Shown in pieces: positions 3,101 to 59,500 of a DNA stretch of 64,000 nt; within the stretch, counting starts at the first letter, position 1, and each line of letters opens with the position of its first letter. The position numbers were made by a program, and so were the translations under genes. Origin of the DNA: Botryllus schlosseri. Its lineage: Eukaryota. The notes beneath the pieces were generated by a model. The model had not been told where the DNA came from. It ran no database searches and worked only from the letters and a program-made list of their open reading frames with translations. Location of the stretch: assembly GCA_051294905.1 (NCBI GenBank), contig CM119371.1:34040001-34104000 (forward strand). The letters run 5' to 3'.

Positions 3101-6100
3101 ATTATGTACCGACCGCTTGACAAAAAGCTAACAGTATGAGTATACAAGGTAATTCGTGTTAAGCGAATTTTCAAAAATATAGCGTGAGTGGTTGCCCGAC
3201 CTTTGATGATGAAGTTGTATAAGCGACACATTAGCACGTGATACGTACGCATGCCACTTCATAACTCGAATATCAACTAAAAAGCAACCCTAACTCTACC
3301 CTCGCCCTAGCCAACCTTAGCTCACTCAATCATAAACGTAGGGCCTACCCGACCCCGATCTTTAAATGCTGCTGACAAATCAGATGATCAACCCAAAACA
3401 TGGTTTCGGGCCGTTTTAAAGGAATTGTAGCACGTGATATGATGCCTGGAAAATGACACTTGTAATAATCTACCCGTTTCCCCTAATGTACTCAACTCAT
3501 CATTTTCCAAACGAGAGCCAGACACTCAACGTGGCTTTCAATTTCCTCGAATATTAACAAATGTAGCCTAAAACAGGTGGATCTATTTTTGATCATGTGA
3601 TACAATTGAAACATTACTCGTATATGTGATCAGATTTGACAGCTATTGATACTAGCTGTGTAATTACACATATTAGGGCGAAATGTCGGTAATCTAATTC
3701 TATTCTAATTCGTGAAATGTTTCCATAATCTAATTTTAATTCTAGTCTACTTTCTAGTTTTCCTGAAATGCTACGGGAGAACTGTATTCTAGTGTGAAAC
3801 TGGTCAAGTTCGGTACAGACTTTCCCATTCTCATGGGTATGAGTATGAACTCTGGTTTGATATGAACTGAACCTGAATTTGTTATATTTATTTATTGTTC
3901 GGAATTTAATTCAATTGCAAAGTGTTTGCGAATTCGCTAAATCAAATCATAACCTAATTGGGACAAAGCAGTGTAGCTGTAATTCAAACTCTAATCTAAG
4001 ATAAAAGAGATGAAATTTTTTTATAGTTTCCGACTCTGCTCCAAGTCTGCCAACAGCTCAAATTCAACTCATTCATTCGCGCATATGTTTTTATCCCAGC
4101 ATGAAAAGTGCGCTGCAGATACACTCCCCGCGAGTCATACTCTTGCACACCGATTGCGTCCCGGAAGGTCCCTTTTTCGAGGAATTCAAACAGACGGCTG
4201 GCTCGCGATTACGGGTTGTGAAACGAACGCCGCCCGTCTCTGTGTGGGGAAATAACGTAGAGGTGAGATGAGGTTACGTTATAGTGAGAATATAATGGAG
4301 AATAATGAGCAATAACATGAATGTGTTGCCTTTGACAATCGATACTATAATGCGCCCTATGATTCCATTTGTGGCTTACAGAAAGTTGAGCACCGATCTG
4401 ATGTGGCTCGATTGCAAGTATTACTGGAAGTGGGAGGAATATACATGGATGACGACGTGCTAATACTGAAACCGCTGTACCCCTTGATGAACAACTCGAT
4501 CGTACTTGGAGAAGAGACTTACGATGCTTTAGGTGGGCGTGGACGTATTTTTCATCTACATAGGCTTCAACCTGGGGCCAGTGGGAGAATTTCAGTCCGC
4601 AGAAATAATTTTGACGCCCACTATGAAGTGTTAAGTCAGAATGGAATCCCCGGTATAAGTATGCATGGTGTTTTGATAACATGGGTCATTTTACACCAAG
4701 CCGAAATCTTTTATGAATCATGAACTGGCTAATTTTAAGCACGGTCGTATTTCGTTCTATTCCTTTGTAAGACACCGCTTATGCGGTTCGGCTGGCGAGA
4801 GAGATCTTATCTCACATCTTTGCCGCGTCTATCGACGCGTATTCGACATAGAAGTATAGTGACGGTCAGTCCCCTATTTTTCCAAAGGCCGTCTATGCGT
4901 TTCCTTGCAATCTCTAGGACACGAACCACATTCTATATATAATGATGTTCACAAAATATTTTGACAGCAAACAGCATCGTATTGGCTAACCGAGACTCGT
5001 GGTTTCTAAATCGCTGGTATCAAGAATACAAGACCTTCAATGATTCCAAGTAAGTTTGCAAAGATCGTTATTCGTAGCTATTCATAGTCCAACTCAACCA
5101 ACTTCACATATTACTATGAAGTACAGTCGTAGATAAATCGGCGTTGCTACTCAAATGGACGGCGTTTATTTCTACTAAAATTGCAAGCAGAAGTAGCAGT
5201 TTCGAAGGCATGTCCAAATTTCACTTCAAGTGGAAGCGGAAAGTGAATGCTATGAATAGTACTCAAGTCAGTACTATCAAAAAGTAGCTTTGGTAGAGGG
5301 ATCGAATACAATTAGCAATTGCATTCGTTTTAGTTTTGATTTAGCAAACGTTCCTCAAGTAGAAGCAGGCCATAACATCAAAGGTATGAGGGACAATCAA
5401 GTACCTACTGCCACAAAGTAGGTTTTGTCGAGGGAACGTATACCTTCTCCAGCTAATTGCAAGATGTATCTTCGCGATTAGTGCAAGATGACTAATGGCA
5501 CAATGAAGTAGGTAGTATCTTTAATAATATATTCAAATTCAGTTTCCGTGATACAGCGGCTATTTCATACAGTTCTTCAATTTCACTCGTGGAGGTGATA
5601 TAAACTTATTCCATGACTACTTTCCAAGTCAAAATATTCGGGTTCATTTCAATATGAATATACAATTCAATGGTAAATTAAAGTTCTGTACCTCCAAGAA
5701 GCTATTCAACAACTTTCCACTCATCAAAATCCAAATTGTAAAAAGTAGAAGTAGGCTAATCTTAAAACATATCCACTACAGTGGGCTACGTAGGAAAAGT
5801 AGGCAACAGCTAAGTGAGTATAGTGCGATTACGGGTGCATGACAGCCACTGTATACAACCCGGAGAATGTGGTATAGTCGACTTCTAAATCGATTTAGGT
5901 GGTCAGTTCCAACCCCGGCTTGCTTGAAACAAAGACCCGATCGTAAAATGGTAACCACGGTTTCTCCGTCTGGCGCTTGACACTCTGTGATATCGTGGAG
6001 AAGATAGCCAGTGGTCCGTACTCGATAACAGGACGTTTTATAGTTTGAACCTCAATGTTTTGCGAAGTATATACGCCGACTCGTGATATACATACAAACG

Positions 6101-25919: not shown

Positions 25920-26327
25920 CCTAGTAGTTAATTTCTGAATTACATATCACGGAATTACCATGTCACGATCGCGCAATACAACCCTTTTTTTTATTAGATT
26001 CTATTTCCATTCAAGTCGTCGTTTTGGTTAATTCCATCAGCAGCCGTTTTGCAGACCAAATAGCTTTGGCATGTACTAATTGCACGGATAAATTTATTGA
26101 ATAAGGATGCAGTCGTTAGTTTGAAAGGCTCCGCAACTTGAATATCGGTCCATACTCTGTGTCTGTATCCATCTTAAGCTATACGTGGCATTGCAGATAG
26201 GATAACAATCACCAATAATAATGAGTATTAGTTTGGGAATACCGATATCCTTCACACGCTCGTTCGAAGTTTCACTTGATGTATTGTGACCAGGCTGCAC
26301 CGACAACCCAAGGAAAGAGTGATCATT

Positions 26328-26990
26328 ATGGCTCTTCAAAAATGACTTTTTTTTTCTCAAATCGCACTGGCTACTTGATAAAATTGTTAGGTTCCCTAAT
26401 TCAAGTCTACACACCAAATTTGGTTCATTTCCAACCATTAGCCGCATTGCTACAGGAGAAGAAAGTTTCTATTTATTATATAAAAATAAATAACAAAAAA
26501 TTTGGAAATTTTCTGTTCACCCCATGAAAGTAATAGGTTGTCTATAGAAACGATGTTCACCAAATTTGGTTGAATTCCAACCAGTACAAACGGAGTTATT
26601 GCCGTCGAAAAATTTGAATTCGAATAAAATAGTATTTACGGTGGCCACCGCTATAATAAATAATTAAAGAATTGGTCACCGTAAATACTATTTCATTCAT
26701 GATCCAAATTTTTCGACGGTGATAACTTCGCTTCCGCTGGTTGGAATTGAACCAAATTAGGTGAACATCGTTTCTATAGACAACCTAACACTTTCATGGG
26801 GGGAACAGAGGATTTCAAATTTTCTGTTATTTATTTTCACATAATAAATAGAAACTTTCTGCTCCTGTAGCAATGCGGCTACTGGTTGGAATTGAACCAA
26901 ATTTGGTGTATAGGCTTAAATAAGATAAACTAACAATTTAATCAAGTAGCCAGTGCGATTTGAGAAAAAAAGTCATTTTTGAAGAGCCAT
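26328..26990. mobile_element. Foldback (fully palindromic) element I, copy 1
   Basis: Roughly 320-bp inverted arms; 10-bp TSD AGTGATCATT/AATGATCATT. Confidence 0.9.
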
Positions 26991-27117
26991 AATGATCATT
27001 TGTCAGTGGAATTGATCCAAGATCAAAGTGCGGCAAGTAGTAGAAAATATTCCAGGGTACTTTCAGGGTATACGCAGTAATATATTGGTTAGTACGTCCA
27101 TTATTCGGATAGAACTT

Positions 27118-35190: not shown

Positions 35191-35520
35191 ATGTGTCTCA
35201 AACGCCGGCTAACTTCGTACCCATTGCCAATCACGAGACTTGGATACTGGGTGCTAGTAGCATTCGTATGCGTGGATTATATCGGTGTGGCGTCTGGCAC
35301 GAAGTGCGAGCCATTGATGGTAGAAAAATGCAGGGACATGCCTTGGACGCTGACGCATATGCCGAACTTGGTGCATCACTCTTCGCAGAAGAACGCGGCT
35401 TTAGTGCTGGACCAATTCACACCTCTGCTACAGCTTCCCGAAACTCATAATCTTCTATTTTACCTGTGTTCGATGTTTACGCCGATGTGCTTCCAACACG
35501 AGAACGAAGTGCCAAGAGTC
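35191..35520 (+). CDS. sFRP3/4: sFRP exon 1 (signal peptide + N-terminal half of CRD)
   Basis: aaaATG start; donor |gtaagt. Confidence 0.93.
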
Positions 35521-38500: not shown

Positions 38501-41500
38501 ATTAGTCTAGCTATCGCTGTTATCAATTTAGATATCGCTTTGAACTGCCAGAAAATCAATTTACGCCCCCTGCCCGTTTCAACGCGGTGTAGTTATTTGG
38601 TGCGCCCCCTTCTGCATATAGAAAATTAGATTTATATATTTCCACTATGCCTGGGTAGCTAGTCAAGCCATAAGCAATTTTCCGTAAAAATATCAGCTGT
38701 CACCCATATGATAGTCGTGGTATGTATAAATTAGCCGAACACATACTTATCTATATATGATGCCGAATGAACGGAGTTAGTCGGGTTCAATTTGCTCTAA
38801 GCATCGTATCCATCCTCTCCGTTGCGCCGCAATTTAACATAATCTGAAAACAGTGAACCAATCATATTGCTATAACGGTTATCAAGACTTTTGTCAATGA
38901 ACATTGGTTTCCAGGTGCCTCCTTGCCGGTCCATCTGTCAGCAGGCCAGAAACCGCGTGGAGCCGATCATGCGCAAGTTCAACGTGTCGTGGCCGGAAGC
39001 ACTGGACTGTGACGACCTGCCCGAGTACCACAGGGGAATGTGCATCGAGCCGGACGCCTTCATCGCAAGACCTGGTGAGTCGGCGGCACAGATCGACTTT
39101 CTGTTGCTATATGGCTGCTTTATGTTGATTTTCGACTACAATTATCATTCTTACTCTGTCTATATTCTTAATATGGTAGCATGACTGGTAGTCTTACGCA
39201 GATCTCGTGGATTTGCTGCTATATGCTGGGTAGTGGGTATACTACATGTAGTGATGCATAGTACACAGAGAGTGGTATTCGAATTTTAGGTCCATGCTGA
39301 TTATCTCAACTTGGTAGTGCAGATACTTTTTAAGTCGGTTTTAGACAGGGTTGCCGCAAATGGCGCCGAACGAACTTAACATGGGAATGCGGAGTCTCCA
39401 ACTTTACCCCCAGTCTTAGAATTTGAAACTAGGTAGAAAGATTCTTGAAAAATCGGTGATGCGACTCTTAATTCGCGACAGCAAATCTGAAGCCGTCTGC
39501 ATATTGTCATCACGAAATACATTCATTAATTATAAAATTGAACCCGACAGATAACTGTTTTGTACCTCTATAAGGTTCATTGAAACCTTGTTGAATAACT
39601 TTGCGTTAACACATAGCTGGTAACGATTCGCTATGTTGTAATTAAATCAACGACTGGCTGAAAAAGTGACTTGCCCAGGTAATATATTACCCCAATGATA
39701 AACGCAGAAAATCACCCTAGCTCTCGTCGTAATGATCATAAACGGAAGCTAAGTCGTGGCAATCCATTCGCTACGCATAACGCGAGAGTTGAAATGCTCT
39801 CGCCAGTAGCATTCCTGGAATATTCTAGTAATTGATGCCATTAGGATTTAGGCCGCTTATTGGTTTGCCATTTTAAAGTTTGCACCGAAACGGTGTACAA
39901 GGAGGTATTCTGTCGTATGCGATTATCGCTTTAAATGGCGTTAAGGAGTATCCTCGATGTGGCTGTATTTCCATGTTCCTTCCATTTCATATATACATAA
40001 TCTAGCGTGTCGGATATCGTGTATAGAGCTTCAACTTGTAGCGATTTGTCATCAATATTAACTTATCTTGTTGATCGTACGGTATTTTGCAACGAAACGG
40101 ATGGGTTTTCCCTCAGCGTTTCGTTAATAGTTAGTACCGCTATATGCCTAACACGCTGTGAAGGTAAACCGTGAACACGCAACAACGGTCCGAGCACTTT
40201 ATGGCATAATAGCAGTCATAAAATCCATAAAAATATCACACGGTCAGAGGCGTGTGGCGTTTTGTTCGAGTCTTATAAGTATTTACCGAATGCCATAAAA
40301 TGCATTTTTGTCTTGTATGCGAGACCCTAAGACTCAGAAAAAGAGGTTCAATTCATCATCTTAACGACAGGGCTTAGGACGGATTAACGCGCGACGCTTT
40401 CCTTAGGAATACTGACACTTTTCAATCACCCCAAACCTGCTGTAATGGCGCGCGTGTCCATTCTCATTCACGCCGTGTGGATCGGTAAATATTATTGATG
40501 AAAACATATCCATTTCATGCGGCATCTCGCTAAAAGCTCAGTAGCGCCGAACCTATTAACAATACTACAATTTTGGCAGCACATACTTCAAAAGATAAAT
40601 TGGAACTATCCAATATCTTTCCCATTTGAGTTTTTCTTTCGTAAGATAATGGTGAAAGTAATACTATTACATTATACTCACGTAGCCTACAAGCATAAGG
40701 CGTGATGTCAAAGCTCGTCGAGATTACCTCCTGCGGATGTACTATGATTTCAAAGATATACTTCCGTTTATATACGGACCTAAAAAAGGTAGTGCGCGAT
40801 CTCCACCAACCATAGAGAAAATTGAGAATTGTAAGATGCGATTTCACGCAAGGGCTACATGGGTGCTACGTAGCTGTTGTCAACCAAAACAAATTTTGCG
40901 TATTCCGCGAATGGATGCTACTACAAAGTAAACATTGGCCTCTGTGCCAGTCAAAATATTTCAAGTAATGTGGTTTTTGGCAATGGCAAACTCTGCATTA
41001 GTAGTCACAAAACTATAATTGCCCGAGTCGAAGCTATAAATGAAGGTTCTTCCTTAGGTGCATAGTGCGATGCTGTTAAATGTTATATAGCCTACGTTAT
41101 GCATCTGGTCGGGGTGAGGTTAAATATAGTTGGCACTGTTACTGTAGTGCACGTATTGGCATAAACGCTCACACAACAATAGGTAACATTGTACATATTG
41201 ACAAGGTAGATCGAAGATGTCACGATTTCATAAAAAAAAAGTAGTCGGATATAAAAGTAGTCGCTAACAGAAGCTTTGGAAACTGGTTTCACGCAGTACA
41301 CCTCAGAATTTCTTCAACTCATATTTGTAAAATTCGGAAATGCTTCTCTTCTCCTTCTCAATACTCGACCTCCTTTGGATAGAGTTAGAATTATGAATTA
41401 CCAATTGGGATAAACCATAGGATACTCAGTTCGGGGTAAAGCATTTTCTTACTGCCTTACTGGACATAGGACACCTCTAAAACAAACATCCTGCAGAAAT

Positions 41501-44500
41501 TATAAATGAGATTGGAAATACATATATTTACCAGATTTCCGCCATATTGTAGACTGAATATCATGCAATTGTCACTTTTCGATACCAAATTATGCTTCAA
41601 CACCTTATTCCAATGGCTTCAAACGAGTCAAATACACCAGTCTTTAGGGATATATATCCTGGAGTCGGGTTCTTATTCTGTATATGTATGTAACATTTTC
41701 AATTGCCTTCTTGGGATGGTACACGAGAACAGGGCCCATATCCGACAGTCGTCGAGCATGTCCGCATTCAAGTCGAAATACAAGCAATTTCTTCTAAATC
41801 AATACTAGCCAGTCTTCAGGATTACCGGACCACGACCTAACATCGACCTCGCCCTCCGCCACATGCCACACCATTTTGTCGCTTGCGTCTTATATTCTCT
41901 GCATTACTTTTCATTCAGTGAGCATGCCTCTTATTTACTTCACCTAGGCTAAGGTGGGTGTCTGATCTTAATGGCTACTCCAAGTTGTTTCGACACCCTC
42001 CTATCTCAGTATCGCAGTCTTGTGATGTTTTGAAACGATGAAAATATTAATAAACCTGACTAATCCTACCCTTTGGATATATGACAAGAAGTGTTGGTGT
42101 ATTTCGCCCATTGGAATGGATGTGAAGGTAGAATTGTGTACCAGAAAGTGCCGTAGACCTTACGCTATGGTGGAAATCCGTGACGTACACAATCTCCGTG
42201 CACAGTGCATGGTGATTAATATTGTATGTAAAACAGCAGTCATTACAATAGAACCAGTCGTGCATATCGTTCGATGATGGATGCTTTTAAATATTCAATG
42301 GAATTACACCGCAAAAATGTTTATTATTTTTACTAGTATATATGGAGTGTGCATAACTGCCATCCATCTTAAAGGAGTGTACCCACCATTGGCGCTGTTT
42401 CGCATCTTTATGATGGCACAGCCCATTAAAAATCATGTCGCCCCAGTTGAACCATATCCGAGTCGCGCGCCAGTGTTCAAAACCGTTATTAGCGGGGAAA
42501 CCGCGGAGCGCTTTCGGTGTTTTCAGATTGAAGTGAGATTAACTTTGCGGACCGTGAAAAGGGCGGTATTTCAACGAGGGCAATAGACTCTGCGAGGCCA
42601 ATGTTTTGGGTCACGATAGGCGCATTAAAAATAAACCCACAATTCCATTCTCGACGCGGCGATTATTTTTAGTTGCGTATAGATAAAAGGCGACGGTTGT
42701 ATTGGTCGCGGGACCCTACGAATCGCCCAGGAACTAGTTGCTAAGCTAACATCGCACGGACTGCAGTATTAGATTGCATATAACTATAATATATTTCAAT
42801 ATTATATTCATATTGGAATATAATCGAATATTTTCGACTTACATTCGTCATCGGTAATCTTCAGAACCGAGTAGAGAATTGAACAAAACATAGTATATTT
42901 CAATTTGAATGTAGTATTCGATTGTATAATGAAGTTCGGCACCTCCAAGAGTATCGGAAGCTAAAATATACGCTGCTTGTACAGAGTATAGATGCCATTG
43001 TCAAATTAGTGCATTGGATGGCCAAGATTGCATAGACAGGATGTTTATTCTTGTTTTTGTTGTTTTGGTATTCATGGTGATTGGACTACATTCGTCATTT
43101 TACATCATACGGATATTCTTTATCACCATTCTTGATCTGTCGAATTATATCATGGCCCTCGTTCGCTCTTGGCGGGGTAAAAGCGGTATCCTTGGAAGCC
43201 TATAACGAAATTGGGGCTTGCTATAAGTCGGAAGATCAGGGATCACGATAAAGCATATCGCCCTGATATCAAATCACCAATATAGAGGTTTAGCCTCATA
43301 GTTTTTATGTCTAAATAGGCGAGTCTGCCTTTAAAGCGCGATAGATTTAGGAGAAAGCAGAAGCGTTAAAAGAGCAGTCTCAGGGCGAGATTTATTTATC
43401 TGAACTTCAACTACCATCCTCACTGTCACAATATATATAATATATATGCATATTATGGTTTTCCAGCTCAATTAGAGACACCATACAGTATAATTATAAC
43501 GAATACGAAAGCAAGTTGTGTTTGAGGACCAGATAACTTTCCACATTGGGTAATTGAATCCCCACTTCAGAGAGGAAAGATGAATTCTTTGCAACAGCAA
43601 AATCAAAAATTTGTAGTTTCATACGGGACCTGCCATTGCGTGGTAGAATATGGACGCGCACCGCGCACGTGATCAAATACCGCACGCTCCCACGCACCGA
43701 GATAGCGAACCTCTTACGGCATTGTAGAACGATAACAGGGTATAAAATCAGTTGCCCTTCACACAAGACTTTGTGTCCACGCTTGTTCGCTTATCCCCCA
43801 TGTCAATATTTGACCAAGGAAAAGTGCGTGACGCTCTTAGGACGAATTTCAACAGCCCCGCGCATAAGTACCTTTCACCATAACTGAAATACCGGCTAGA
43901 TACGATTACTATTCGAAAATCGGTGTGATGCTAGATAAAATAACATTCCACAGTCTTTGAAGAATATATATTAGAACGTTTCATGTTTAGAACACAGGTC
44001 AATAAAGACTGTGTCCCAAATGTGGTCTATAAACATAGTAGGTTCGGGTCCTCGAAAATGGCACTCCTCGTTACAGCGGCAGTGATTGACTATACCCCAT
44101 CGGCAACATGGATATAAAGAAGAAATTATAATGTTTGGCATTCTCCTTGACTATTTATGTTGTGGTGAATGGTTTTGGAGACGCTAGGACTTGTAAAAAC
44201 GCATAAGATAACCTTCATACCACGAGTATGATATGCACTTGAAGAATACGCGCCGCCAACGTGACTCCAACACTTACCAGCCGACCTATTACCACAACAA
44301 CCATAACCAAAAAAGAGTTCCGAATGGAGACAAAGTGTAAAAAATTCATGCCCGTGACCACAGAATATATGTAACGCCAATTTTGTTTCGTTAAATTCGA
44401 CTTGACTTTGAAGGAGATATACTTTTCGGAAACGCAAAATTGAAGGATCGACTTGGCGGCACGCCCAAACACGTTCCCAGTCGCATTTTTGTTAAAACAA

Positions 44501-47500
44501 CAATTTGATTAATGTTAGTAGCACCCACTCCCGCTTCGACAGGAAATATATGAAGTATCCTCTAAACAAGCGCAAGGATTCGGCTAAGTAAATGCGGGTC
44601 GTTTACTATCACAGGGGCTATTTGTGGCTCCAATGTATAGTCCAATCCACACAGAAGCAGCAATTTGAACCACAACCAGATACCTTCTTTTATCAGAAGC
44701 GAACAATGTATGGTGGCATTAAAATGCTCAAGTCGCCGGTTTGTTGACATTAAAAGGTTCTGAATATCTTGAAGTAGTCTAATAATTATAATTGGTTTTT
44801 GAAATTGTGTATCTTCTATATTGCATATTTCTTTTTTACTGCAACAGCATGTTGCAATGTTGCTGCATAATTAAGGATTTTCCTCCCTATAACCAGCTAT
44901 TAATGTGGAAGTTGTTCCCAACTTTCAAAATCTCCAGACGTGTACTGTATTGTGCCTTCTTTTGCATAGTGATGAAATGGTACATCGACATCATTCGATC
45001 CATATATGGGCGGAAAATAGTTACTTCACAAATTTCCACAAAGCCATCGGCATTTTGGGGTACGCAATGTTGGTTTCACGCCCATTCCAATGGGAGAAAC
45101 GAATCAGATACCAAAATTCGTATGGATATATGATATTCCAAAGGTGTAGCGGATTTTGTTTGCGTGTAACACCTTTTAGCGCTTTTCTGAAAAGGTATAT
45201 GAAAACAGAAGCTACTCTACCCCAAAGATATATCTTCATAACGATTGGTGGAATGACTTCTGTACCTTGTGACTACTAACAAGCGTGCACTCGGTAAATA
45301 TAGACAGCAGCCCTATATTCGTAACATAGTTCGTAAAAGCGACAATCTCCCTGACGTGACATGAATATCTGTCAATGTAGTCACACCTACATCTTGATTA
45401 TCGGTATTATTACAACTATACCATTGTATGGACGAGAGGAGAGGCTGTATCTAAAATGGAACATGTCAAAACATCTATCACTGCCTGCACCGTTTTGGCT
45501 AAAGAGAATCGCATTCGGTGACTTTGAATCTGAAGGGATAACAGTTCTTCATGGTGATCCAGATCCTCGTCGATCACCAGCAATACAACAGTCATATACA
45601 GTTAGAATCTTCAATGTACACTGTACAGTGTACAATCTGTACATGAACATGTAGGCCTACATGGTCAAGCTGTACGCAATAGATATCCGTGCAATGACGC
45701 AGCACAATCTTCTGGTTAGAACGAGCTGTTTGATTACATTGTCATCGCGGGTGTTCACTGTTCATTCAGCATAGTCACAACACCCTTGTTATATGAGCTG
45801 GGTAATATATACAAGCTATTTCGTGTATGAAAGCACTAACTCTGTGTTCAATATCCATATTTTATCTTAGTTAGTGCATTTAATATTTAATTTCTTACAC
45901 ATGTTTCGTTTTACTCCTTCACAAATGCAAGTCATGACAGCCTGCAACAAACATATAACATCCAATGTCAATTATAATCATGCAACGAGACAAAGTTACT
46001 TATACGAACCAGTACGTAAAATATCATGTCCCGCGTGTTTGCCGACATTATTGCTGAAGCAGCTTATCTTTTATTTAGTTTGGTGACGTGTCGGGGTCTA
46101 TCGTTTTCCGATATCTTGAGAATCCACAGCCCCGCGATATTTGCCTTGTCGCAAATTTCGATACATAGTCCAAGTGTCTGGAAGTCGTTAAATATGACAC
46201 GGTGATTTGTGATCAGACGCGTGTGGTCTGCAACCATAGTTCAGCGACTCGTAGAGTAACAGTTTTATTCAAGAAATATATCTCAAATAAGCCTTCGTTA
46301 AACTATAATACTATAGATACCAATCGAATATAAGTGATCTGGTTCTATACCAATACCGAGAAAACCATTACCGAGAACGGACATTACCGAGAACGCACAT
46401 TACCGAGAACGGACATTACCGAGAACGCACATTACCGAGAACGCTATTACCGAGAATGGACATTACCGAGAATGGACACCACAGAGAATGGACATTACCG
46501 AGAATTGACGCCACAGAGAATGGACATTACCGAGAATTGAAAACACCGAGAATGGACATTACCGAGAATTGACACCACCGAGAATGGACATTACCGAGAA
46601 TGACACCACCGAGAATGGACATTACCGAGAATTGACACCACCAAGAATGGTTTTCTCGGTATTGACCGACACCAAGTGATCTAGCCTATATTCAACAATA
46701 CATGTAATACTAGTGATAAGTGACTATAATATTCATCATGATTTTATTATTTTATCGATCCACGATACCAAAATATAGATGTCAGCTTAGGAACATCAAA
46801 ACATGAGGCATGCTCATTGCTCATTGAAGAAAAAACAGTCACTTGCGAATCCGTTATCTTATCAATCACCAATGTACGAATTCAGTCTGATGATCAATTC
46901 TCGCTAATGATGACCCGAGGCCTACGATACCACTACTACCTACGATCGTAGGCCCCGGATGACCCGCCATAACCGCTAACCATCGTTTGCGGAATAAGCT
47001 TATTCACGTCTCGATAGCACTGGGCGAGACAAGCCCCACATGATGACGGTTCATCCACCAACGTTGGTATAAGCTTGGTCACGACATTATGGTCGTCCGA
47101 TTCCATCCTAAAAGCTACGTATGCCACCCATTACGTGTTTATTTATCCTCCTGGTACGCTCCATTACGACTGACGAATGGCATCACCGAGAATTTGTATC
47201 CACGCTGCGGGACAGTAATGATTTTAACTTTTTCACGGGTCAGCTCCGCGCACGTTCTGAGTGCACCTCGGTCGAAACGGCACGCTTTGAATTGTGATTG
47301 GAAATTTGACTTTATAGTCACTTTCAGATAAAATCAGTGCCCCTATACAGCCTATATGTCTCTGTGGAATTGTTGACTGAACTTTGGTGATCGTGCCAAA
47401 TATGTTCAACAAGCGAGAAGACATTTAAACCTAACAATGGACGTACCGACGTAGTTTATAAGTCTGTCATGTGTTATTATTGATCGCTTCGACAGTGCAA

Positions 47501-50500
47501 ATATAAAACAATGGGTAGAACTACGGGGTTAATCGTGATTGTTTCGTTATTTCGGGTATATGGCGCATCGATCAGCGGTTTTACGCATAATAGCATTCCA
47601 CGAATGGTTATAGTTCGGTGCCCTTTTCAAAATCACGCATTGATTCTTATTCTCAGCAGTCAACACTCTTGCACGACACAGAGGCACCCGGCGCACCTTA
47701 AGTTTAAAATCACAAAGGCTCTCGTTAGATGTCACACGAATGCGTTGTTATTCTTGCCCGGTTTTCGTCAGCTCATTAGCGATACCTGTTTCGAACTGAA
47801 ACCGGCTGGCATTGACGAGATGTAATCGCGTCACACCGTTGTGTTTACGTTATCACATGTACAAGTTGTTTATGGAAGCGTCCAAATTGTTTGCACAGCG
47901 AAGGTAATAAGGACATGGTGGGAAACGGTAGGAGTTAATCGTGTTCCACTGCGCAATAAGTGTCGCAGTTTCAAAGGGACATTGTACGGTTGCGTGTTCT
48001 ATGGCATAAATCAACATCGAATCATTCGTCCCACCATACAAGGTCATGTTTTCGAACACGTGTCGGTTCCTACGCAGTTATAGGGATGCTGAATAATGAA
48101 GCTTTTTTCGATGTCTATAGTTCCGTTCCTACTCTGAATCTCAGCTACTTTAGACACATTACTCTCTTCACGAATTGGTTTTATTTAAATTACGGTGTCT
48201 CAGTAAATGAATTGTCTGTATGCAGCTCAAATCTGGCAACATTTCATCTGAAGCCAGAATCAGACTCTCCAAACCGGCCTATGCTTAACATGTATTGTTT
48301 TTGATAGGGCGTCCGTAAAATTACCCAAGAAATGCACCGAACACCGAAGGTCTGAGGTTCCGTAAGACATAATTGCACTTTATTCAGGGATAAGGTATAG
48401 CTTGATCAATCATTTGCATAATTTGTGTATTGAAGGATATTATTGAGCTCAAATTAAATTATAATCAAACCTATTTCTGCCCGAATATACTTTGTCATTT
48501 TATCAGCTCAGTACAGCAATGTAAGATGCGATGTAATGACCAAATAGGAGGATGTCGAAACGACCATACGCGGTATACTGATCTAATACCCAATTACTAA
48601 AGGCACTAGCTTCAAGAAGAAGAATTGTTTGGGGTTTCACATACGTTTAGCAGTGAATCAGAAATGGCAAGATGCATCTCGGCGATAATCGCAACAAGAT
48701 TATTGACACTCAACATAGTAGCAATCTTCGAATATATATACTCTTACATAGTTCTTTCACTCATAATAGTGATGCAGACTTATCTCAAACTACTTCATAC
48801 TTTTCAAAACATAAAGAGCAAAATGTGAGTGAATTGGCCTTCATTATGTTACGTAGAAATGGAAGTTTAGTCCAAAAAACATAGCCAGCTGAGATAGTAG
48901 TACAAGTATAGTCAAAACGTACTTCAGTACTCCCAAGATGTCGAAGTAGGCCAACTTCGTTAGTGTCAAAGTGACCACCTCTGATCGCCATTGTCCCAAT
49001 AAATCCGTAAAAAGCATAAACGTAGTCGTAACTACACCAGATGCCGTTCACTCGTAATAAACTTTAACTGGCATCCGCCCGTCCGGCGCCAGATAAATGG
49101 CCGTGACGGTTCACTCTTCCTCGGCCAGTTTTACGGCGGCCAAGACAGCAAACAATTCGCGGGCGACCAAATCCTTCGCGAATTTCGTGTCACAGTGAAG
49201 AGATATATATTCAATGTGACGCAATAATTCATTCGGACGACTTGACGACCGCGTCGTAAAATTGGTAGCCATGAAATATCTACCGTTCCCGGTATTCGAG
49301 CAATGCTACGTTGACATTACTAGTGGGAAAAACCATTTTCTCTTTAACGTTGTGTTTACCAACATCGATTTAAGACCAGTAAATGTATCATATGACTGTA
49401 AGGGAATATTGAAATTAGCATTGTGGTTGACTAACCCCGTGACAATTCAAATTTTATGAAGTCATACAATGAATTTAATCAAATCGTACAAACAGGTTAA
49501 TTAGGTATCTACCAAGGGTCTATGTTGAGACATCTTATTGACCCAAACCTTCGAATTCAATAGAGTACATGAAGCATTCGTAAATAACATGCCGATGATA
49601 TGCACTATGCAGTCAGTTGGATACACTCTCTATAAGTACACAACATGTTTTGAATCCAATACAGAGCATTTCAAATACATTCCGCGGGGATTGAACGCAG
49701 TATTGTTTTCTTAACATGTCTAGAGCAGTGGTTTTAACCGCGGTCCACACGAACAGTAAGGGTTCCCTGACCCAGTCGCGGGGGTTCTCGGTAGGTCGAG
49801 GCTCGCACAGCAGAAGTCACACTGGAGTGCAGTAAATATGCATTATAATCTTTATGTTCGTGTGAAAATCATGGTTTTGTTTTAATAACACTATTGCTCT
49901 CTGCACACTACTGTTCATCAGGGCTCTTCAAAAATGACTTTTTTTCTCAAATCGTACTGGCTACTTGATAAAATTGTTAGGTTACCTAATTTAAGCCTGC
50001 GCAAAAAATTTGGTTCAAATCGAGCCAGTACCCGCTTTGCTACAGGAGAAGAAAGTTTCTATTTATTAAGTAAAATTAAATAATAAAAAAATTGAAAATT
50101 TTCTGTTCACCCCATGAAAGTGTTAGGCTGTCTATAGAAACGATGCTCACCAAATTTGGTTCAATTCCAACCAGTGGAAGCGGAGTTATTGCCGTCGAAA
50201 AATTTTGATTTGAATAAAATAGTATTTACGGTGACCGATTCTTTGTTTATTTATTATAATTGTGCTCACCGTAAATACTATTTTACTCAAATCAAAATTT
50301 TTCGACGACAATAACTCCGCTTCCACGGGTTGGAATTGAACCAAATTTGGTGAGCATCGTTTCTATAGACAGCCTAACACTTTCACAGTGTGAACAGAAA
50401 ATTGAAATAAAAATTATTATTTAATTTTATATAATAAATTTAAACTTTCTTCTCCTGTAGCAAAGCGGTTACTAGCTGGAATTGAACCAAATTTTGTGTG

Positions 50501-53500
50501 TAGGCTTAAATTAGATAACCTAACAATTTTATCAAGTAGCCAGTACGATTTGAGAAAAAAAGTCATTTTTGAAGAACCCTACTGTTTATTTATCACTATG
50601 CAGTTCATTTTGTGAACAGGTGTTCTATAGTAATGTGTGATGTAGTAGATTTTTGTTTTTGTGAAGATTAGAGGTTCACAGAGAGCTTGCAGATTAGTTC
50701 AAGGTTCCGCCAGATTAGTAAAGATGAAGAACCACTGGTCTAGAATCCCGCAGATCTGAACCTTTGAAATAAAATATTGAACACAGAGATAACATACTTA
50801 TATCTTAATATAGCATGAATCGAATTCGTTACCAAACATTCTAAAGACATCTCACCTATAGTCTATTACTTAATTACACAAGAGCTATCCTTGTTATGGA
50901 CGTCCTGTTATGTCGATACCTGAACCAGCAGGCTATTGTGATTCCTCCAGGCCGGCGCCGCATTGCTTTGAGTTCCCAGCACAACATGAAAACCAATTCA
51001 ATTCCGCCATTGTACCCATGAACCCGCAAAGTCCATTAACGCACCCGATATTGGAACATCATGCCGCCGTTGTAACATCGAGCTATCAGCAACAGGACGC
51101 CATTTCCTATGAGAACCTCTATCAAAAGGCGTGTGACGTCACAAAAGAGTCCGGTTACGCCACCCGGATATTATTGCTGTAACACGAACTTTGAACTCCA
51201 AGATTCACCCGCCTGGCGGCCACCAGGCTTACAAAGGATGTCGGATTGTTTGGTCACAACCGAAATCATCAATGCCCGACACGGCCGACAGTGATTACCG
51301 AATGCGATGAGACCACAGCTGGTGCTTGACTCGTTATGAGGTCTTCTTTCAACGGCCTGTGTGCGTCTTGGTGTTTGTTAACAGATAACGTAAATGATTG
51401 GAGACGAGCCAAGTTTCAACTTCAAGTTTGTGCGAACGGTGCAATTCGACCGAGTTAACCTTGCGATGTAATTCGAAGCTTCCTAAATGCCATTCAACTT
51501 GTCAGCTGCGTTCGGATGGCGTAACATGATATTGTAATCGAAGTGTATACCTTGGTCGCATCATGCAGTAAGGTGGTCTCGACAGAGTAAAGTGTGTAAA
51601 AGTGTTCATGGTGTGCAATCAATGCTTTTCATGCCGTATTCTACCATGTTTGAAATAATGCTATTGTCATAGCCATGCCCGATTACTTTTTCTATCAGAG
51701 TTACTAAATAGCCAGCAGATATCCTCAGCAGTAGTTTGTCTCGGTATGCGGACTTGGCGCCCGAAATGCAATAAAATACATCAGTGTTAATACAAAATCC
51801 ACGCAATATTCAGATCGTACGTAACCGCTTCAAATCTGATTGTTATTGTGGAACACATTGTCAACGCTTTACACTTGCATTGTAATTTCTCTCCGCAACA
51901 AACTCATGCTCTGATATCTAGGCTAGCTTGTGGACCAAGGACGCAGATTGTAATGTTTTATGGAACGAATGTCTTTGGATCCTGTGTCATGATTTCGAAG
52001 TTGCAGCTTAACTTTGGCAATACCGGACGGCAGCAAGGATTAAACTCGCCTAAATTATAATTACAAGCTGTCCGTGTCCATCAATTAACAGCCCTCCGAA
52101 GTCGTGCAATGCAATGCAACCCAACCTTGGACAAATCCACTCATGTGGTCGGCTCGAGATATACGTTACATTATCAGCTTTTTTTCTATTTGCTTGTCAA
52201 ATGAAACTGGGGGTCTTGCAAATACTGTCGGAATGTGACCTGTCGGATGTTATCTTGCTACGTTGATTGAGACTCGTCTGGTTTCTTTATGAAGTCCGCG
52301 CGTTCAGTTTCGGAATCGCAAATACGTGACTTCTCAACGGTAACGTGGAGCTCTTCAACATCTGAGATGATAGACGACTGCGAACCCTTCAACATCTTCA
52401 AGAATTTGTAAACACTTCAACTCTCAGAGGAGATTGATTGTTCTCTGCTCCTGTCACGCTAAACGTGACGCTGTTGATGTTATGACGTCATACTAAACTT
52501 CTGACGTATGAATTCATGGCCGATATATAAAACGTGGTTACGTTGTGACATCAAGATATAAGATTCAAGTCATATGCATCAGCTTCACAAACATAATCTT
52601 TGGTTAGAAGCCATCACATACACATATTTGTGTCTGAGCACCCGGAAACGGTAATGGATCAGTTTATTTTCGTTTCGCGTTTTCTTCCTACTCAGTGCTC
52701 AATTTCAAGCCCCACCCGCCCTGTGTTCTATTGATTACTATGTTAAAGCAAGCTCCGCTCTTACCGCATAATGACACCGAGAAGCAAGCACATCTATTTT
52801 AGCCTTCAGGTTTGTTTCAAAATCAATCGCGAAACCGGAAATGATATGTAATTGAGAGATCCCGGGATTTTGTCAACTGATTTGTGTGGTTCGATTGCAA
52901 ATACGGAACTGATGGTGTTTGGGGATAACAATCAGCTGGTTTTTCCTGTCTGTTAACGAAATGTCACGAATTCCTTGCAATGTTGGCGCTGGTATTTGTA
53001 ATACTGAAAGATTAGTGAAATTGTCGTGGACTGGTATTTTGCTAACAATGGAATACACACTTCAAAAACCTATCTTGGAATAGGTTCTATCTGAATTCAC
53101 GAATACGTGTACTGAAATAAAACCCTACTGCCACGTGTGGATCTTGCGTTAGTACATGGCTACCGTATGTAATAGCGACACGGGAGACTGAAGATTGATC
53201 GGCACAAGCGACTGCCCTTACCGGTAATTTTATACAACGCGGGACACTTTCACGCAAATACAGGCGACCTTGATATTATTCATGGCTTAACCATCCATTT
53301 CAAGGTCACCAGTGGAGTGTTTCGTTGCGAAATTAGCTCGATTCCAAGCGATGATTACTTTCGATATGGCAGCGTCAAACTCTGTACAAAATTTGTTGAA
53401 CACGCATCTTATGCAGTCTGTATTTTCGCCACGGATTTACATGCAGTATAACGGATTTTAAATAGCGATTAACTCGCACAATATGTTGCATTTTTATACA

Positions 53501-56500
53501 TGGATTTACAAGCAATAGGTCGCATTTATGAATATCAGGAGTATACACATTGTATTGAATTTGTGAACATCATGAATTTACCGATGATATGTCGATTTTT
53601 GAACATGTTATTGAAAGCCTTTTTAGCATCTTGATCGAATATTGCTGATCCGAATTTGTGACCATTTGGACTTAGCCCGAATAGCGTAATAGTGCCTTCT
53701 GAATCTCCGATTCCATGCAATCGTTATTAATTTGCATGTAATATGGTAGGAGTTGAGATGCGATAAAAGGAGTGGAAAACCTGTGTTGTTGTTATGGAGG
53801 AGGTTATAGTCTTCACCACGACGTATCGCACTTCCCATTAAAACAGCATGTTCGATAATGATATAATTGACGTGAGCATGACCACGATGTTTGCGTCAGA
53901 TTATAGTTCATATTCACAGGAAACGGTTAGTCTTGCACATACGATCATTGGCAATTTGTCTGTATTCGGGAGTGCCCGCGAGAGTGTGTAGTGTATGGCA
54001 AACAAACTGTCTAACCCCTAACAGCTATTATTGAAGATTATTTCCAGAAGCCGAGGTCAGCAACCTTAGGTATTGCTAGAAGCTATTTTTTGTTTTCGGA
54101 GCTATTTCTGTGATATTAGGGTGTTTCTTAATTACGGACAACACGTTAGGTCATTCGAATGAACATGCCAAATGTCGGAGTGCTGCATGACATTATAGGG
54201 TAAGATATGATATTTTATTCGAAAGAAAAGAAAATCGTTTCCAATGCCTTAAAGAATATCAATAAGCGATTATTAACCTGCTACATTGGTTCGATTATAA
54301 ATAAAGAAAACATGCAACCTTTTACAGCAAAGATGTATGCCACGATTATTGCTCATTTGTGCTTATAGTATTATCATGAAACACGAAACCTTCAAATGGC
54401 AGGTTTATTTTCACACCACATGGGATACCCAGCGATTGTAATTAATGAAATACATGACCTGCAACACTATAGCAGTATAGCAAATCTATTTTAACCGCCC
54501 TGGCACAAGATAGATGTCAAGATCGAAAACGGTAACGGCATAGTAAGCTGTAGTGTAGCTGTGTGACCCTGATTACGTCATTTGTATTTGTGATCTAATC
54601 TACAATCTTATCTCTTTTTGCAGAAGTAAGAAGCTGCTCCGTTGCTAACCCAGGTAAGAAAACCGTTTGCATTATTCGAGAATCACTTCATATACCGAAT
54701 ATACGCTTGGTACCGCGGATTCGCATTTGCTTGCAAGTCACTTTTTACAGCTAACATGAAATGATTGTGGTTCATTCGGTGTATTAACTAGTATGGACGC
54801 GACTCGAACAGTCAGTCAGTCAGTGTTTTACATCGCATCATTTTATTGAAGGGATTGTCTCGCTTGAGTCGCATCGTTCAATGTAAGCACGGGCTTCGAA
54901 AATGGAATTGCCGACAAACTTTCACACTATAGGTTTTATGATGGCAATCTCACTGATGATCACGTGATGATAAATAAATCTAACACTATATACGTTCCAA
55001 TGTGCAAAACAGCAAGTAGATGTGCCCGAAGATCCCTAAGTCGACGTGAAAGTAGTCGACACACTTGAGCCACTTTAGTGCAAGTATAGGGTAAATCCAA
55101 ATGACTACTCCACAAACGTAGTACACCGTTACTGACCAGCGTCACATGTGACCAATACTAAAATCGATCCTAATCGGCGAAATTTTGAATTATCGTAACA
55201 GCAAAGCAACCCATTAGTGCGTTCGTGTACCGTCTTGTTCACCGGAAATGTGGGTTTCGCACGCTCGGCTTCAATTAGCGACAACTTATCATTATTTTAG
55301 GCATCCCTATTTCCGGTATTGAGCTGTTACGCGGTTGGGCGTTCCGTCGATAAGAAGGCTTACACTGGAATCCTATCAAAACTCGATTACACCAATTGGC
55401 GACCGCTTTGAAACGCGTGTTCCTTCAGAACTTGTAAACGGGTCTAATTGCCAAAAATAGACGGCTTGTTTCTTCTAAAGACAAGCCGCAGCGCACCTAC
55501 AGATGGCTTTAATCCCCTAAAATTGCCGAAAATCATGTTTTGCGTCGCGTCGCATTCACTCATGGCTAGCAAGCTGCGTTCGGCGATTTCTCCGACAAAT
55601 TCGGATGTTTTCAAGTCGTTTTAGGGCGGAGAAAATTAGATTATAGTTTGACCACAGAAACGTTTTAGCATTTTGAACGCCGCCACGATTGAATGAAAAC
55701 GAGTGTATTGAATACGTATCCAGTTCCGGATTTCCGCCGAAATACAAATCTAAATATGAATAGCTGTTTTGAGGTACAGAACTTCAAATTAATAATATAG
55801 TCATATCGAAAGAAATCCAAATATTTTCGGCAGACACGAGTCAAGGGTATTCGTCAACAACAAGTCGAGAATTGGAATAAACTTTGTAAGATTGTATATC
55901 ATTGAACATGGTAAATCTAAATCTCCAATCTACAAAAACTTATTTGAGTACTCTGAAACCTTTACTACGATCAAGACAAACCTACATGTTGACTCCGAAA
56001 AAGGAGAAGTATTTCGTTACGACCACCTCTGGGTAGGATTAGGACCTAATCATTAGGCGATACATTCATTCATATATTTACATTCCAAGTGCGTGCTATA
56101 GCTCGACGCACTGTGAGACATGAATTGAATGAAACACGCATGCCCTCCATTTAAAAGAGCTGTTCCGAACGCGTATTTCACAAGTTGATGTCGTCAATGA
56201 TAGGAAATATCAGCCTCACGTATTCATTGCACTAGACCAGGGGTTCTCAAAGGGTGGGCCACAGAGCATTTTGAGGTGGGCCACAGAGCCATTTAGAAAA
56301 TTTCAGAATTGATGTGAGTTCAGTTATATTTCTTTATGTTATTCGCTAAAATTATAGGCCTATTCGTATCAGCTAATTATACGTAGGCTACATATAGCTT
56401 TTCGTCCGACTCTGATTAGACATAGTGGCACGCATGAAGTCAGCATATACAAATCGAAAACGTTAAGGAGAAACGGTGGCTTTTTCTACTGGCTATGACA

Positions 56501-59500
56501 ACCTACGGCTAACAGCAACTAAAATAATTTCAAGCGTATAATAACTGGAAAAGAATGCTGAAGTAACCAAATACTCCGGCAGGGTCATATGTCGTATGCC
56601 GTTGAAAGGGGTATGCAATGAACTCGCAATGAAGTGCAATTGATGTACAGATTTGCCGTACTTTGGCAGGACGTATTATTGCAAGCTAAACATAGCCAAA
56701 ATTGCAAATTATTAGCAACTTCTATCGGATGTATACTGCACCACCGCAACAACGAATCCTAGTCAATTGCGGATTTATCGGAGCGCATTAATCTTTGAAG
56801 TCGGTTTAAAATGTCCGTAGTACATCACGCATATTGAAAAATCTTTCTCCACTTCTCTGTAGTACCCCATTCACCAATGAATTGTTCGATGCCGGTCCAG
56901 AATGATTATAATATTCCCCACAATAGTATCACTAAAGTCCCAATTACACAGTGCGGAGATCTGATCCTTGTGTTTCGCGACGCGACTGGAGCAGCAGACG
57001 AAAATAATCTACTTAGGTTTTAGATTTTTAGCTTATGATCTACCAGGGCCGTAACTGCCGCACCCGCATCCCCAATAGGGGGAGCTCGAAGTGGCCCAAG
57101 ATTATTTCGTTGGTCGTTTGTTGAAGGATATTTATTCAACTTGAATTTTTTTTGCTCGCTTCGCGCGATTTCATATCCCGGGAGATCGCGATTTAAATAT
57201 CATCAGTTAGAGAAAAATGCGCATATTTTAGAGAAATAGGCATATCGGCGCTGTCAGTGACCACGAATTAAACAGGATTATGACCCCAAGATATCAGGTG
57301 GGCCACAGCACATTTTTAAAACGGAAAATGGGCCAAGGCCAAGAAAGGGCTGAGAACCCCTGCACTAGACACCAGCTACGAACTTACAGTTAAGGTCGCG
57401 TTCCGGTCATACTCCGCTCTGTACTGTCGCTTACAGCGTTCTACATTAACCTAATACATGTAACCTGCGCGTCAGAGAAGACCAAAAGTATGTCACCTTT
57501 ATAGGCTCTTGCGTTTTATCGACCGCACACCCGCCTGAAATCTGGTTTCAAGTTACATTTTAAATATGATTTTGTGATAAGTACGACGAACTATAAACGA
57601 ATGCGCGGCGACTTGGTATGCAGAAATGGGGACCGCAAATATACCACACTTAAGATAAGATACATTTCTCACATTTTTTGAAGTTAAACCCCGCACCGTT
57701 GTTTATGGTATGTCCATGTCGGCCAGCTGGGTGCAGTCAGTCCTTGGAAATTGTGATATGCGAACATGTTGCTTGAAATATAGCAATGCTATCTGAACTA
57801 ACTTGGTGGAGTAAGGTTGCTAACAGAGAGTACACTTCGACTAAGCAGAATAATTCAATAGTATATTCACATTGAAGTAAACCCGAATATTTTCGGCTGC
57901 CATTCTTCAAGCGTAATTGTCATACTAGCTGTTGACGACTACCCCTGATGAGTGTCAGCCGAAAACGTTCGGGTTTATTTCAATATGAATAAATTATTCA
58001 ATTGTGTATTGATGTTCTGTACCTTCAAGAAGCTTGTGAACTAACTTACTGATGAAACTTGTTACATATTTTTCAGTGAAATGCGGGAAATGTAAACGCT
58101 TCAAAATCAAGCAGAAGACCTTCGTTCAGCAGGATTATGACTTCGGTAATGCTTTTTTCTTTTTCTGACTAATTTCCCCGCCCCCAAAATACTCTAAATT
58201 CCACACATATCGAGGTTTGAGTAGGCCTTTATCGCTGTAGATAGACAGCCACGCCATACGGTAGTTCGTTTAGAAACTTGCTCTCTGCTGTCATCGGGAA
58301 TATGTTCCGAATTCTGTTAAAAGTCATCCATATCAATGTTATCGTTATTCTGCAAGTACGTACTTTACTTAATTCACAGCCGGAAAAACGAAAAATGACT
58401 AACGACACTCTACACGGGCACGATTTCCAGTTTTTACGGCGATTCCGATCGTAAAAAGGCTTGAAAACTGTCCCAAAATTACTTCAGACTTTGATAAATC
58501 CTACGAGTACACAGTATGTAGTTTTACCCCAAAATCTGTTGCGTAATCAAAAAACATGACCATACGAGTATATTGCAAGTAGACAAGATCCACTCAACGC
58601 TCCGAAAGATACAAGCACAGCTTTACTCGAGAAACACAACACACTTACAATATTATGACGATTCCAAGCTCATGATGTAGCTTCCTTTTGACATCTAGCG
58701 GATAGATGTCTGACAAATTTTGAATCCTAATATTTGCTCCAATCTAAATGCAGTTTGATTGGGTTTATGAGAGCTTGTCTACCTAATAAATCCCAAAAAG
58801 TATTTGAAAGTTGCAGATGTAGGCCTACGATACGTTCGGTACTTCACCGGACCTGTCGTCTGGCAACACCAGGTTTACCACACGTCCTGCCTTTAGGAGG
58901 ATTTGTCCTCCAGTTTCAAGAAATGTCTTCCTTTCACCCTAATGACGTCCTTTTTGGCAAATTGTCCTCTTTTTAGTCTAAAATGGTCAAAAAGGCCACG
59001 AAAAAGAGTGAAATGTTGGCTTAAAAGACAAACGACGGGTAATTCGGGAGCAAAAAGGGAAAAATGAACTTTTTTTGGTCAAGACAACGAAATTAGATCT
59101 AAAAATACGAAATTGTCCCAGTTATTCGTCCGCAGTAGTAACTTTTGCAGCCTGTCAAAAGTGTTTCCGGATCTCAAAACCCTAGGCAACACCTTAGCAA
59201 CAGTGACAATGCCGGATCCGATATTTCATTGTGATTAACCTCTCTCAAGAGACTCTTGGAGATACCGGACTGCTATCTTTCTCACAGTTTGACCACAATT
59301 GTGTTCCGGTTACGAACCTATCCCTTTTTCTAGTTGTCCGTGCCCGCGTGGAAAAAACAATCCAGAAGCCGTGCGAGGCCGAGGCCAGAGTTAATATCAG
59401 CGACGTGTATCGGATGAAAAAGCTTTTTATCACGCCCGGAGTACAGACGCTCACCTTCAACACGTCTTGTCTGTGTCCGAAACTAAAGCGAAAGTAAGCG

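Follow-up and report, generated by a model that had tools for sequence, protein, structure and literature searches.

A hammerhead-motif hairpin in an sFRP intron of Botryllus schlosseri: very probably a truncated insertion of an abundant Penelope-like element

Introduction

The hairpin carrying a hammerhead ribozyme motif close to the 3' end of intron 3 of an sFRP3/4-like gene in Botryllus schlosseri is, with high confidence, a single Penelope-like element (PLE) insertion, extremely truncated at its 5' end and belonging to an abundant family. It is made up of two copies, one inverted and one direct, plus a 31-nt tail, and it is a decaying structure in which the hammerhead is most likely sequestered. 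The stretch of DNA analysed, hereafter the window, is 64,000 nucleotides long. Inverted pairs of minimal hammerheads, as well as inverted pseudo-LTRs (pLTRs) with a tail, are already in print, and both are common in the B. schlosseri genome. The locus is ordinary, a decaying scrap of a very common PLE whose ribozyme motif is one of thousands of copies; taken singly it matters little, as one of thousands of scraps of a retroelement of known kind.

The host gene and the position of the hairpin

Two splice joints of the GT..AG type define the surroundings of the hairpin: 39074>54624, found in contigs of runs X1 and X8, and 54653>58077, found in an X8 contig and in two X21 reads that share one start. 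The joints rest on these contigs, which are guessed to be RNA, and on the two X21 reads; exon numbers are counted from the coding exon 35191-35520. The joints therefore place the hairpin in intron 3 (54654-58076), before exon 4, and the exon number given in the initial annotation of this DNA agrees with the spliced contigs. Intron 3 is still spliced across the insertion. Host exons 35191-35520 and 38915-39074 encode a Fz domain (E 9.7e-12 and 7.3e-9), and an exon near 59335-59494 has an NTR match below threshold (E 4e-4; 20.6 bits vs a cutoff of 21.9). Compared with PDB, the host protein had sFRP-3 as the best among 41 matches (1e-16). A micro-exon (54624-54653; 30 nt, phase 1 to 1), which the spliced contigs support, separates the Fz and NTR exons.

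The features of the locus are collected in Table 1. The plus strand at 57941-57974 reads directly as accc-CTGATGA-gtgtcagcc-GAAA-acgt-TC-gggt, with C17 at 57970, after which cleavage is predicted. This copy has all the elements of the PLE minimal type I core (CUGANGA / GAAA / UH, helix I, G10.1-C11.1). The minus strand of 57881-57914 reads acgc-TTGAAGA-atggcagcc-GAAA-atat-TC-gggt, and it departs from the minimal hammerhead at C3, at G10.1 and at one helix I pair (position numbering after PMC4209133). Both the sense core and its twin are thus present as first annotated. The hairpin in which they lie had been described as about 130 nt long and about 85 nt before the exon 4 acceptor; the hairpin is real, but it spans about 155 nt, with arms at 57852-57922 and 57933-58003 that are 80% complementary, and the element, tail included, ends at 58034, 42 nt from exon 4. 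Its MFE is -72.5 kcal/mol (z -13.7), a stability reached by 0 of 200 shuffles.

Table 1. Features of the sFRP intron 3 locus, in positions of the window
Feature	Positions	Strand	Description or basis
Exon 3 of host gene, 30 nt	54624-54653	+	spliced contigs
Intron 3 of sFRP3/4-like host gene, 3,423 nt	54654-58076	+	splice joints
Another, older copy from this PLE family within intron 3	55757-55865	-	antisense, core destroyed
Left copy of 11-nt direct repeat, candidate TSD	57794-57804	+	47 nt outside inverted arm
Spacer between candidate TSD and inverted arm, 47 nt	57805-57851	.	no second genomic copy found
Inverted 5'-truncated PLE copy, tail-less	57852-57922	-	ends 58 nt past core; 10/71 positions off family majority
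Decayed twin hammerhead	57881-57914	-	C3>U; G10.1>A, abolishing the closing pair of helix II; helix I with a G.G mismatch
Fold-back junction (hairpin loop)	57923-57932	.	at what is left of ACTAGT, self-complementary in the family
Direct PLE pLTR copy, paired hairpin arm	57933-58003	+	arm alignment, family comparison
Minimal type I hammerhead	57941-57974	+	helix I ACCC/GGGU, core intact, helix II of 1 bp, helix III a palindrome, AACGUU (AAUAUU in the family)
Remnant of first ~17 codons of PLE ORF	57985-58034	+	ATG at 57985; holds private AATAAA 57988-57993
One-sided PLE tail, 31 nt	58004-58034	+	missing in inverted arm; anatomy as in Craig et al. 2021 (PMC8557442), Fig. 2 legend
Right copy of 11-nt direct repeat, candidate TSD	58037-58047	+	direct-repeat match
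Exon 4 of host gene, start of NTR region	58077-58145	+	spliced contigs

The parent Penelope-like family

A first look at the genome with a 201-nt region gave 2,527 candidates, 40 of which were scored. Exact 29-nt hammerhead cores (with any helix III) number 4,153 genome-wide, the control giving 0. On contig C16 the family is found as full-length tandem units of 2,692 bp, with the hammerhead between the stop codon and the next ATG, so that the units form hammerhead-bearing pLTRs as expected of an EN+ PLE. From the ORF stop to the hammerhead there are 109 nt, and from C3 to the next ATG 40 nt; in the window this ATG is the one at 57985.

A single intact ORF of 848 aa (positions 165-2711 of locus L084) matches RVT_1 (E 7.8e-9, 36 bits vs a cutoff of 29.6). 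A profile search with the full-length ORF found RVT_1 and no GIY-YIG; matches to GIY-YIG PF01541 have E values of 0.0047-0.022, below the curated cutoff, and a VVY..YVG motif with C,C,H,H is visible in the sequence. These below-cutoff matches, together with the residues seen, point to the C-terminal GIY-YIG endonuclease that defines an EN+ PLE. The neighbours of the ORF in Atlas have a score of 0.96, HTH_animal and GIY-YIG being found among 15-19% of their members, and a PDB search with the ORF gave only a weak RT match. A motif resembling a Zn finger in the linker that joins RT to EN has been described for Neptune and Nematis, Penelope/Poseidon being listed as lacking it (PMC8557442). Inspection of the 848-aa translation revealed no CxxC between RT and GIY, and because of this linker, taken by itself, the family probably belongs to the Penelope/Poseidon clade. 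Tandem arrays with the intact 848-aa ORF, together with two subfamilies whose identity is about 86% at the DNA level and 92% at the protein level (L084, L051, L056-L059), make the family look recently active.

The initial annotation had seen in the locus a relic of Penelope/retrozyme type, located on the sense strand of the sFRP pre-mRNA. The first half of this reading holds, given the number of cores and the link with the ORF, but the second does not, as the relic is a fragment of an autonomous element. It had also been stated that a lack of related copies and of any PLE linkage would speak against the proposal; the genome holds the thousands of exact cores given above, and the motif lies just before an intact RT/GIY-YIG ORF. 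Besides, an AATAAA does follow the core, as noted at first, but it is not a signal of the family. Position 57988-57993 corresponds to ORF codons 2-3 with one private change, a chance mutation, the family reading ATG AAT ATA there; a poly(A) signal at family level was rejected, as T occupies position 57992 in 90% of the 48 family segments.

The window contains four insertions of this PLE family, the other three being at 5631-5715, 42791-42950 and 55757-55865. The last of these, on the minus strand, is 78% complementary over 81 nt to the right arm of the hairpin, 2 kb away. The copy at 42791-42950, in intron 2, is a decayed inverted-plus-tail hairpin with a dead core, and 5631-5715 is another decayed insertion.

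Anatomy of the insertion

In canonical EN+ PLE insertions an inverted, 5'-truncated copy is accompanied by a tail of 30-40 bp (Craig et al. 2021, PMC8557442; Goubert et al. 2022, PMC8969392). This is the anatomy found in the window, where the arm with the tail ends at +89 from C3 and the inverted arm at +58, leaving a one-sided tail of 31 nt. The ends were mapped at 22 loci (the window itself, 15 loci out of a set of 30, and 6 from another set, with duplicates and single-arm copies left aside), 2 of which gave no pair. The other 19 inverted pairs have tail arms that end at +91 to +101, inverted arms that end at +53 to +75, and tails of 18-45 nt, a span that is biased since the loci were chosen for their likeness to the window. 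The twin, which had been taken for the second ribozyme motif of a pair, is accordingly the inverted 5' copy of the same insertion and not an independent ribozyme.

Inverted arrangements are frequent in the family. Among the first 100 cores listed, 26 are in an inverted pair, and the 13 neighbouring pairs within 3.5 kb are all of the -/+ type seen in the window (0 of the +/- type), with spacings that form a continuum from 75 to 2,898 nt. Exact inverted pairs 45-75 nt apart occur at 52 loci, and the junctions vary among the 50 listed.

Target-site evidence at the window is less clear. Adjacent TSDs of 11-15 nt flank 8 of the 19 other inverted pairs. In the window, an 11-nt direct repeat (57794-57804 and 58037-58047) is an uncertain TSD, its left copy being displaced by 47 nt; direct repeats of at least 11 nt were found in 3 of 2983 random flank pairs. 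A search for a second genomic copy of 57760-57851, which spans the 47-nt spacer, returned only the segment itself. The right copy of the repeat contains a CTAAC that resembles the branch-point consensus; its A, at 58044, is 32 nt upstream of the 3' splice site, and the tail ends 10 nt before the CTAAC. The candidate TSD would then include the likely branch point, of which the insertion may have made a second copy, one of the two remaining beside the acceptor.

The following course of events would account for this anatomy. A PLE, probably of the Penelope/Poseidon clade, would have made its cut in AT-rich DNA at the 3' end of intron 3 of the sFRP gene, and would have reverse-transcribed no more than the final ~120 nt of its template, comprising the pLTR end, the hammerhead and the opening codons of the ORF. 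At the 5' side the same event would have placed an inverted copy that stops about 31 nt earlier than the direct one, the stretch it lacks being the PLE tail. As the two copies are reverse complements, the pre-mRNA would fold into a long hairpin as a by-product. In the living element the hammerhead probably works as a dimer through its palindromic helix III, whereas in the relic the upstream arm, transcribed first, would sequester the hammerhead, which would have no partner in cis, and both arms would decay neutrally.

A different origin, from a MITE-like or retrozyme-like non-autonomous hairpin that the PLE enzyme multiplies as one unit, is very unlikely. It would fit the existence of at least 52 short palindromic copies, many with their own TSDs, and the four pairs of loci that appeared to share a junction. 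However, junctions vary between loci, the spacing of inverted pairs is continuous, and the tandem unit of 150-300 nt seen in retrozymes (PMC7761336) is lacking. As for the four like-junction pairs, two share all their flanks, which indicates copying together with the surroundings, and one has mirror-image tails, which indicates independent events; in the remaining pair (L082/L083) junction and tail match and the TSDs differ, which fits either recurrence or copying as a unit. The two pairs with shared flanks (L076/L077 and L080/L081) are short hairpin insertions on different contigs whose fetched flanks are all alike (345 nt at 100%; 348 nt at 98.9%), so these hairpins were carried within larger duplicated or mobile DNA. 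A non-LTR retrozyme was also considered as a candidate and rejected, the locus being an inverted pair from a coding PLE with no direct tandem repeat.

Decay, folding and activity of the copy

Taking the majority sequence of 48 family segments as reference, the right arm diverges at 10 of 102 positions and the left arm at 10 of 71. Where the arms pair (71 positions), the right one has 5 changes of its own and the left one 8; a further change is shared, and 1 position differs in both arms. G.U pairs number 5 vs 4 A.C, and the plus and minus strands fold alike (-71.8 and -72.0). No signal of selection on a sense-strand hairpin (compensatory arm changes, G.U bias) was found at the locus; the two arms decay independently, in a neutral manner.

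The active hammerhead fold is not predicted in the native transcript. The probability of helix I is 1e-19 to 1e-24 at four of four transcript lengths and about 1e-23 in the hairpin, and a fold constrained to the hammerhead costs about 40 kcal/mol; the earlier suggestion that the ribozyme is probably masked by the hairpin agrees with these predictions. Even as an isolated 46-mer the sequence favours other hairpins (helix I p ~0.05). Minimal PLE hammerheads have been reported to stay uncleaved as monomers and to show low cleavage as dimers (PMC4209133). Here the twin is antisense, so the pre-mRNA would have no dimer partner in cis, and helix III AACGUU pairs poorly with the AAUAUU of the family (+2.0 kcal/mol). 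On these thermodynamic predictions the window copy looks catalytically inert.

The AACGUU form has 1 strict match genome-wide and 2 with a looser pattern, and it was rejected on these numbers as a subfamily marker. By hand calculation, about 0.6 such double changes are expected from the counts of the two single changes (59 x 40 / ~4,000) vs 1 seen, and this private helix III is therefore at chance level. The sense copy keeps all the bases of the core, helix I and helix II, together with a palindromic helix III, at a divergence of about 10-13%; the chance that all 23 constrained positions stay intact at that divergence is about 4-9%, for a copy that was picked as intact among thousands. Reads that cover the hairpin carry the family base at 57992 (35/35 in X21), so they come from other copies and say nothing on cleavage of the window copy. 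With the hairpin reads coming from other copies, no read-end pile is listed at 57970 in about 6% and 3% of two raw runs.

It might be argued that the host keeps the hairpin beside the branch point of intron 3, either to modulate splicing or as a ribozyme that acts conditionally, once duplex unwinding or editing frees it. The element is in the sense strand, its tail ending 10 nt upstream of the branch-point-like CTAAC and 42 nt upstream of exon 4; of the two hammerheads, the sense one has stayed intact and the twin is broken; and helix III has changed at two positions and is still palindromic, with just 2 such copies in the genome by the looser search. Nevertheless, the arms show neither compensatory changes nor a G.U bias on the transcribed strand, AACGUU stands at chance level, its weak pairing with the family helix III leaves no dimer partner, and the window alone holds four insertions of the family, which together make this explanation highly improbable, somewhat more so than amplification as a unit. 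A bolder form of it, in which the antisense twin locks a still-competent hammerhead that has AACGUU as a private dimer helix and acts as a co-opted switch at the sFRP intron 3 branch point, deserves still less credence. If it were true, a transposon-derived, self-locked ribozyme would regulate a Wnt antagonist, the sFRP pre-mRNA being cut or its splicing changed once the duplex is unwound or edited.

The hammerhead across related families

The core by itself is weak evidence, because the bare pattern CTGANGA-N4-30-GAAA occurs 10 times in the window vs 4.2 expected, only about 2.4-fold above chance, and the case is carried by family evidence. An Infernal-type search of the kind proposed in the initial annotation gave no support: the whole window has 0 Rfam matches at the gathering threshold, hence no hammerhead family was detected, and at E<=10 the region 55500-58300 has 2 chance matches, neither of them a hammerhead.

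Within the family, helix III is ATAT in 95 of the first 100 cores listed among the 4,153 (hand count). Copies changed at the second helix III base number 102 genome-wide; the 100 listed are divided into ACAT (59), AGAT (13), AGCT (12), AAAT (7), AATT (2), ACGT (1) and other double changes (6), also by hand count. All 12 AGCT copies belong to a separate homologous family, with a helix I that is mostly UCCC/GGGA and not ACCC/GGGU. This PLE-like family (L064-L075, e.g. G000:C2:9137604) joins a helix III of AAGCUU to UCCC/GGGA in helix I, a compensatory version of the hammerhead. A third hammerhead family (L043:3317-3358) has GCUA/UAGC in helix I and U at position 17, with AGCT in 49 of 61 copies (hand count). 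Two of its copies lie 2,786 bp apart on contig C10, a spacing like that of a PLE unit.

Across the three families the core is invariant and AAUAUU in helix III is swapped for AAGCUU. In an alignment of 7 rows both sides change in 3 of 4 helix I pairs and in 1 of 3 helix III pairs, slid controls being far lower, although the rows are related (three come from one family and two from the window) and represent only a few independent events. The family motif thus combines the palindromic helix III of PLE minimal hammerheads with covariation between families, and the compensatory changes in helices I and III argue for a genuine PLE minimal hammerhead, as judged from sequence comparison. Related to this, the two subfamilies are identical at 34 of 34 hammerhead positions vs 102 of 150 four-fold sites; the adjoining UTR is also alike (68/75 identical), and the identity is therefore only suggestive of constraint on the ribozyme. 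The weak helix II, from which doubtful activity had been deduced, is indeed 1 bp long, but this is the norm in the family and not a sign of decay.

That the hammerhead likeness is a chance motif within an ordinary repeat is extremely improbable, in spite of the missing Rfam match, the modest excess of the bare core and the preference of the 46-mer for other hairpins, given the invariant core, the two-sided changes in helix I and the helix III swap, the 34/34 identity of the subfamilies and a location just before the ORF start that resembles that of the Anolis Poseidon hammerhead (PMC11167929).

Comparison with known systems

The minimal hammerheads of metazoan PLEs (Cervera & De la Pena 2014, PMC4209133) are the closest counterpart. 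The B. schlosseri motif shares with them the short helix I, the G10.1-C11.1 pair, the palindromic helix III and the location in a pLTR, as well as the thousands of dispersed copies derived from truncated PLEs. However, its helix II has 1 bp vs the 7-8 bp given for the Schistosoma families there. Dual motifs on opposite strands, about 100-700 bp apart, are reported in the same paper, whereas those of the window are only about 60 nt apart. The insertions agree with canonical EN+ PLE insertions as described (PMC8557442; PMC8969392) in the adjacent inverted 5' copy, the one-sided tail (31 nt here), the 5' truncation and, for the family, the tandem full-length arrays. The window copy differs from them in lying at the short extreme (about 185 bp), with the RT and EN sequence gone.

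According to Frangieh et al. (2024, PMC11167929), the tail in Poseidon of Anolis carolinensis (PAc) is bounded by two internal sites at which RT starts. As in the account given of PAc, the hammerhead is found here at the junction of pLTR and ORF start, the 3' ends of insertions fall inside the start of the ORF, the tail is the stretch between two end points, and targets are AT-rich. Nevertheless, the PAc ORF begins inside the hammerhead, whereas the ATG lies 11 nt downstream of it in this family, and the ends, about 111-118 nt into the ORF in PAc, are at about 13-35 and 51-61 nt here.

Metazoan non-LTR retrozymes, as presented in PMC7761336 and bioRxiv 10.64898/2026.07.22.740005, also have a type I hammerhead, a relation to PLEs and many intronic copies (42-44% in Xenopus). 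In contrast to the inverted pair from a coding element described above, they are head-to-tail tandems of non-coding units of about 150-300 nt. The conserved intronic hammerheads of amniotes (reviewed in PMC6765202) likewise lie in the sense strand of introns. Those are called ultraconserved in that review, whereas the window copy belongs to a repeat family, is decaying and shows no trace of constraint.

Implications and other repeats of the window

The family has a modest value as a young and abundant PLE, with intact tandem ORFs and many very short inverted-plus-tail insertions with TSDs of 11-15 nt. Together with the sister families that swap the helix III palindrome, it offers material for testing the origin of PLE inversions and tails, and whether minimal hammerheads are selected as dimers.

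Further repeats were observed in the window. Two copies of a palindromic element of about 690 bp (49912-50595 and 26320-27005) are 85% alike and match in both orientations, being MITE- or foldback-like, and RNA reads of this element's family map to the window copies. The repeat at 41739-42059 has by far the highest RNA coverage of the region examined and ends in TTGA repeats, like the end of a SINE or LINE. Finally, a tandem repeat at 46351-46650 has an open frame of ITENGHYRE-like units, and the reads vary in the number of units.
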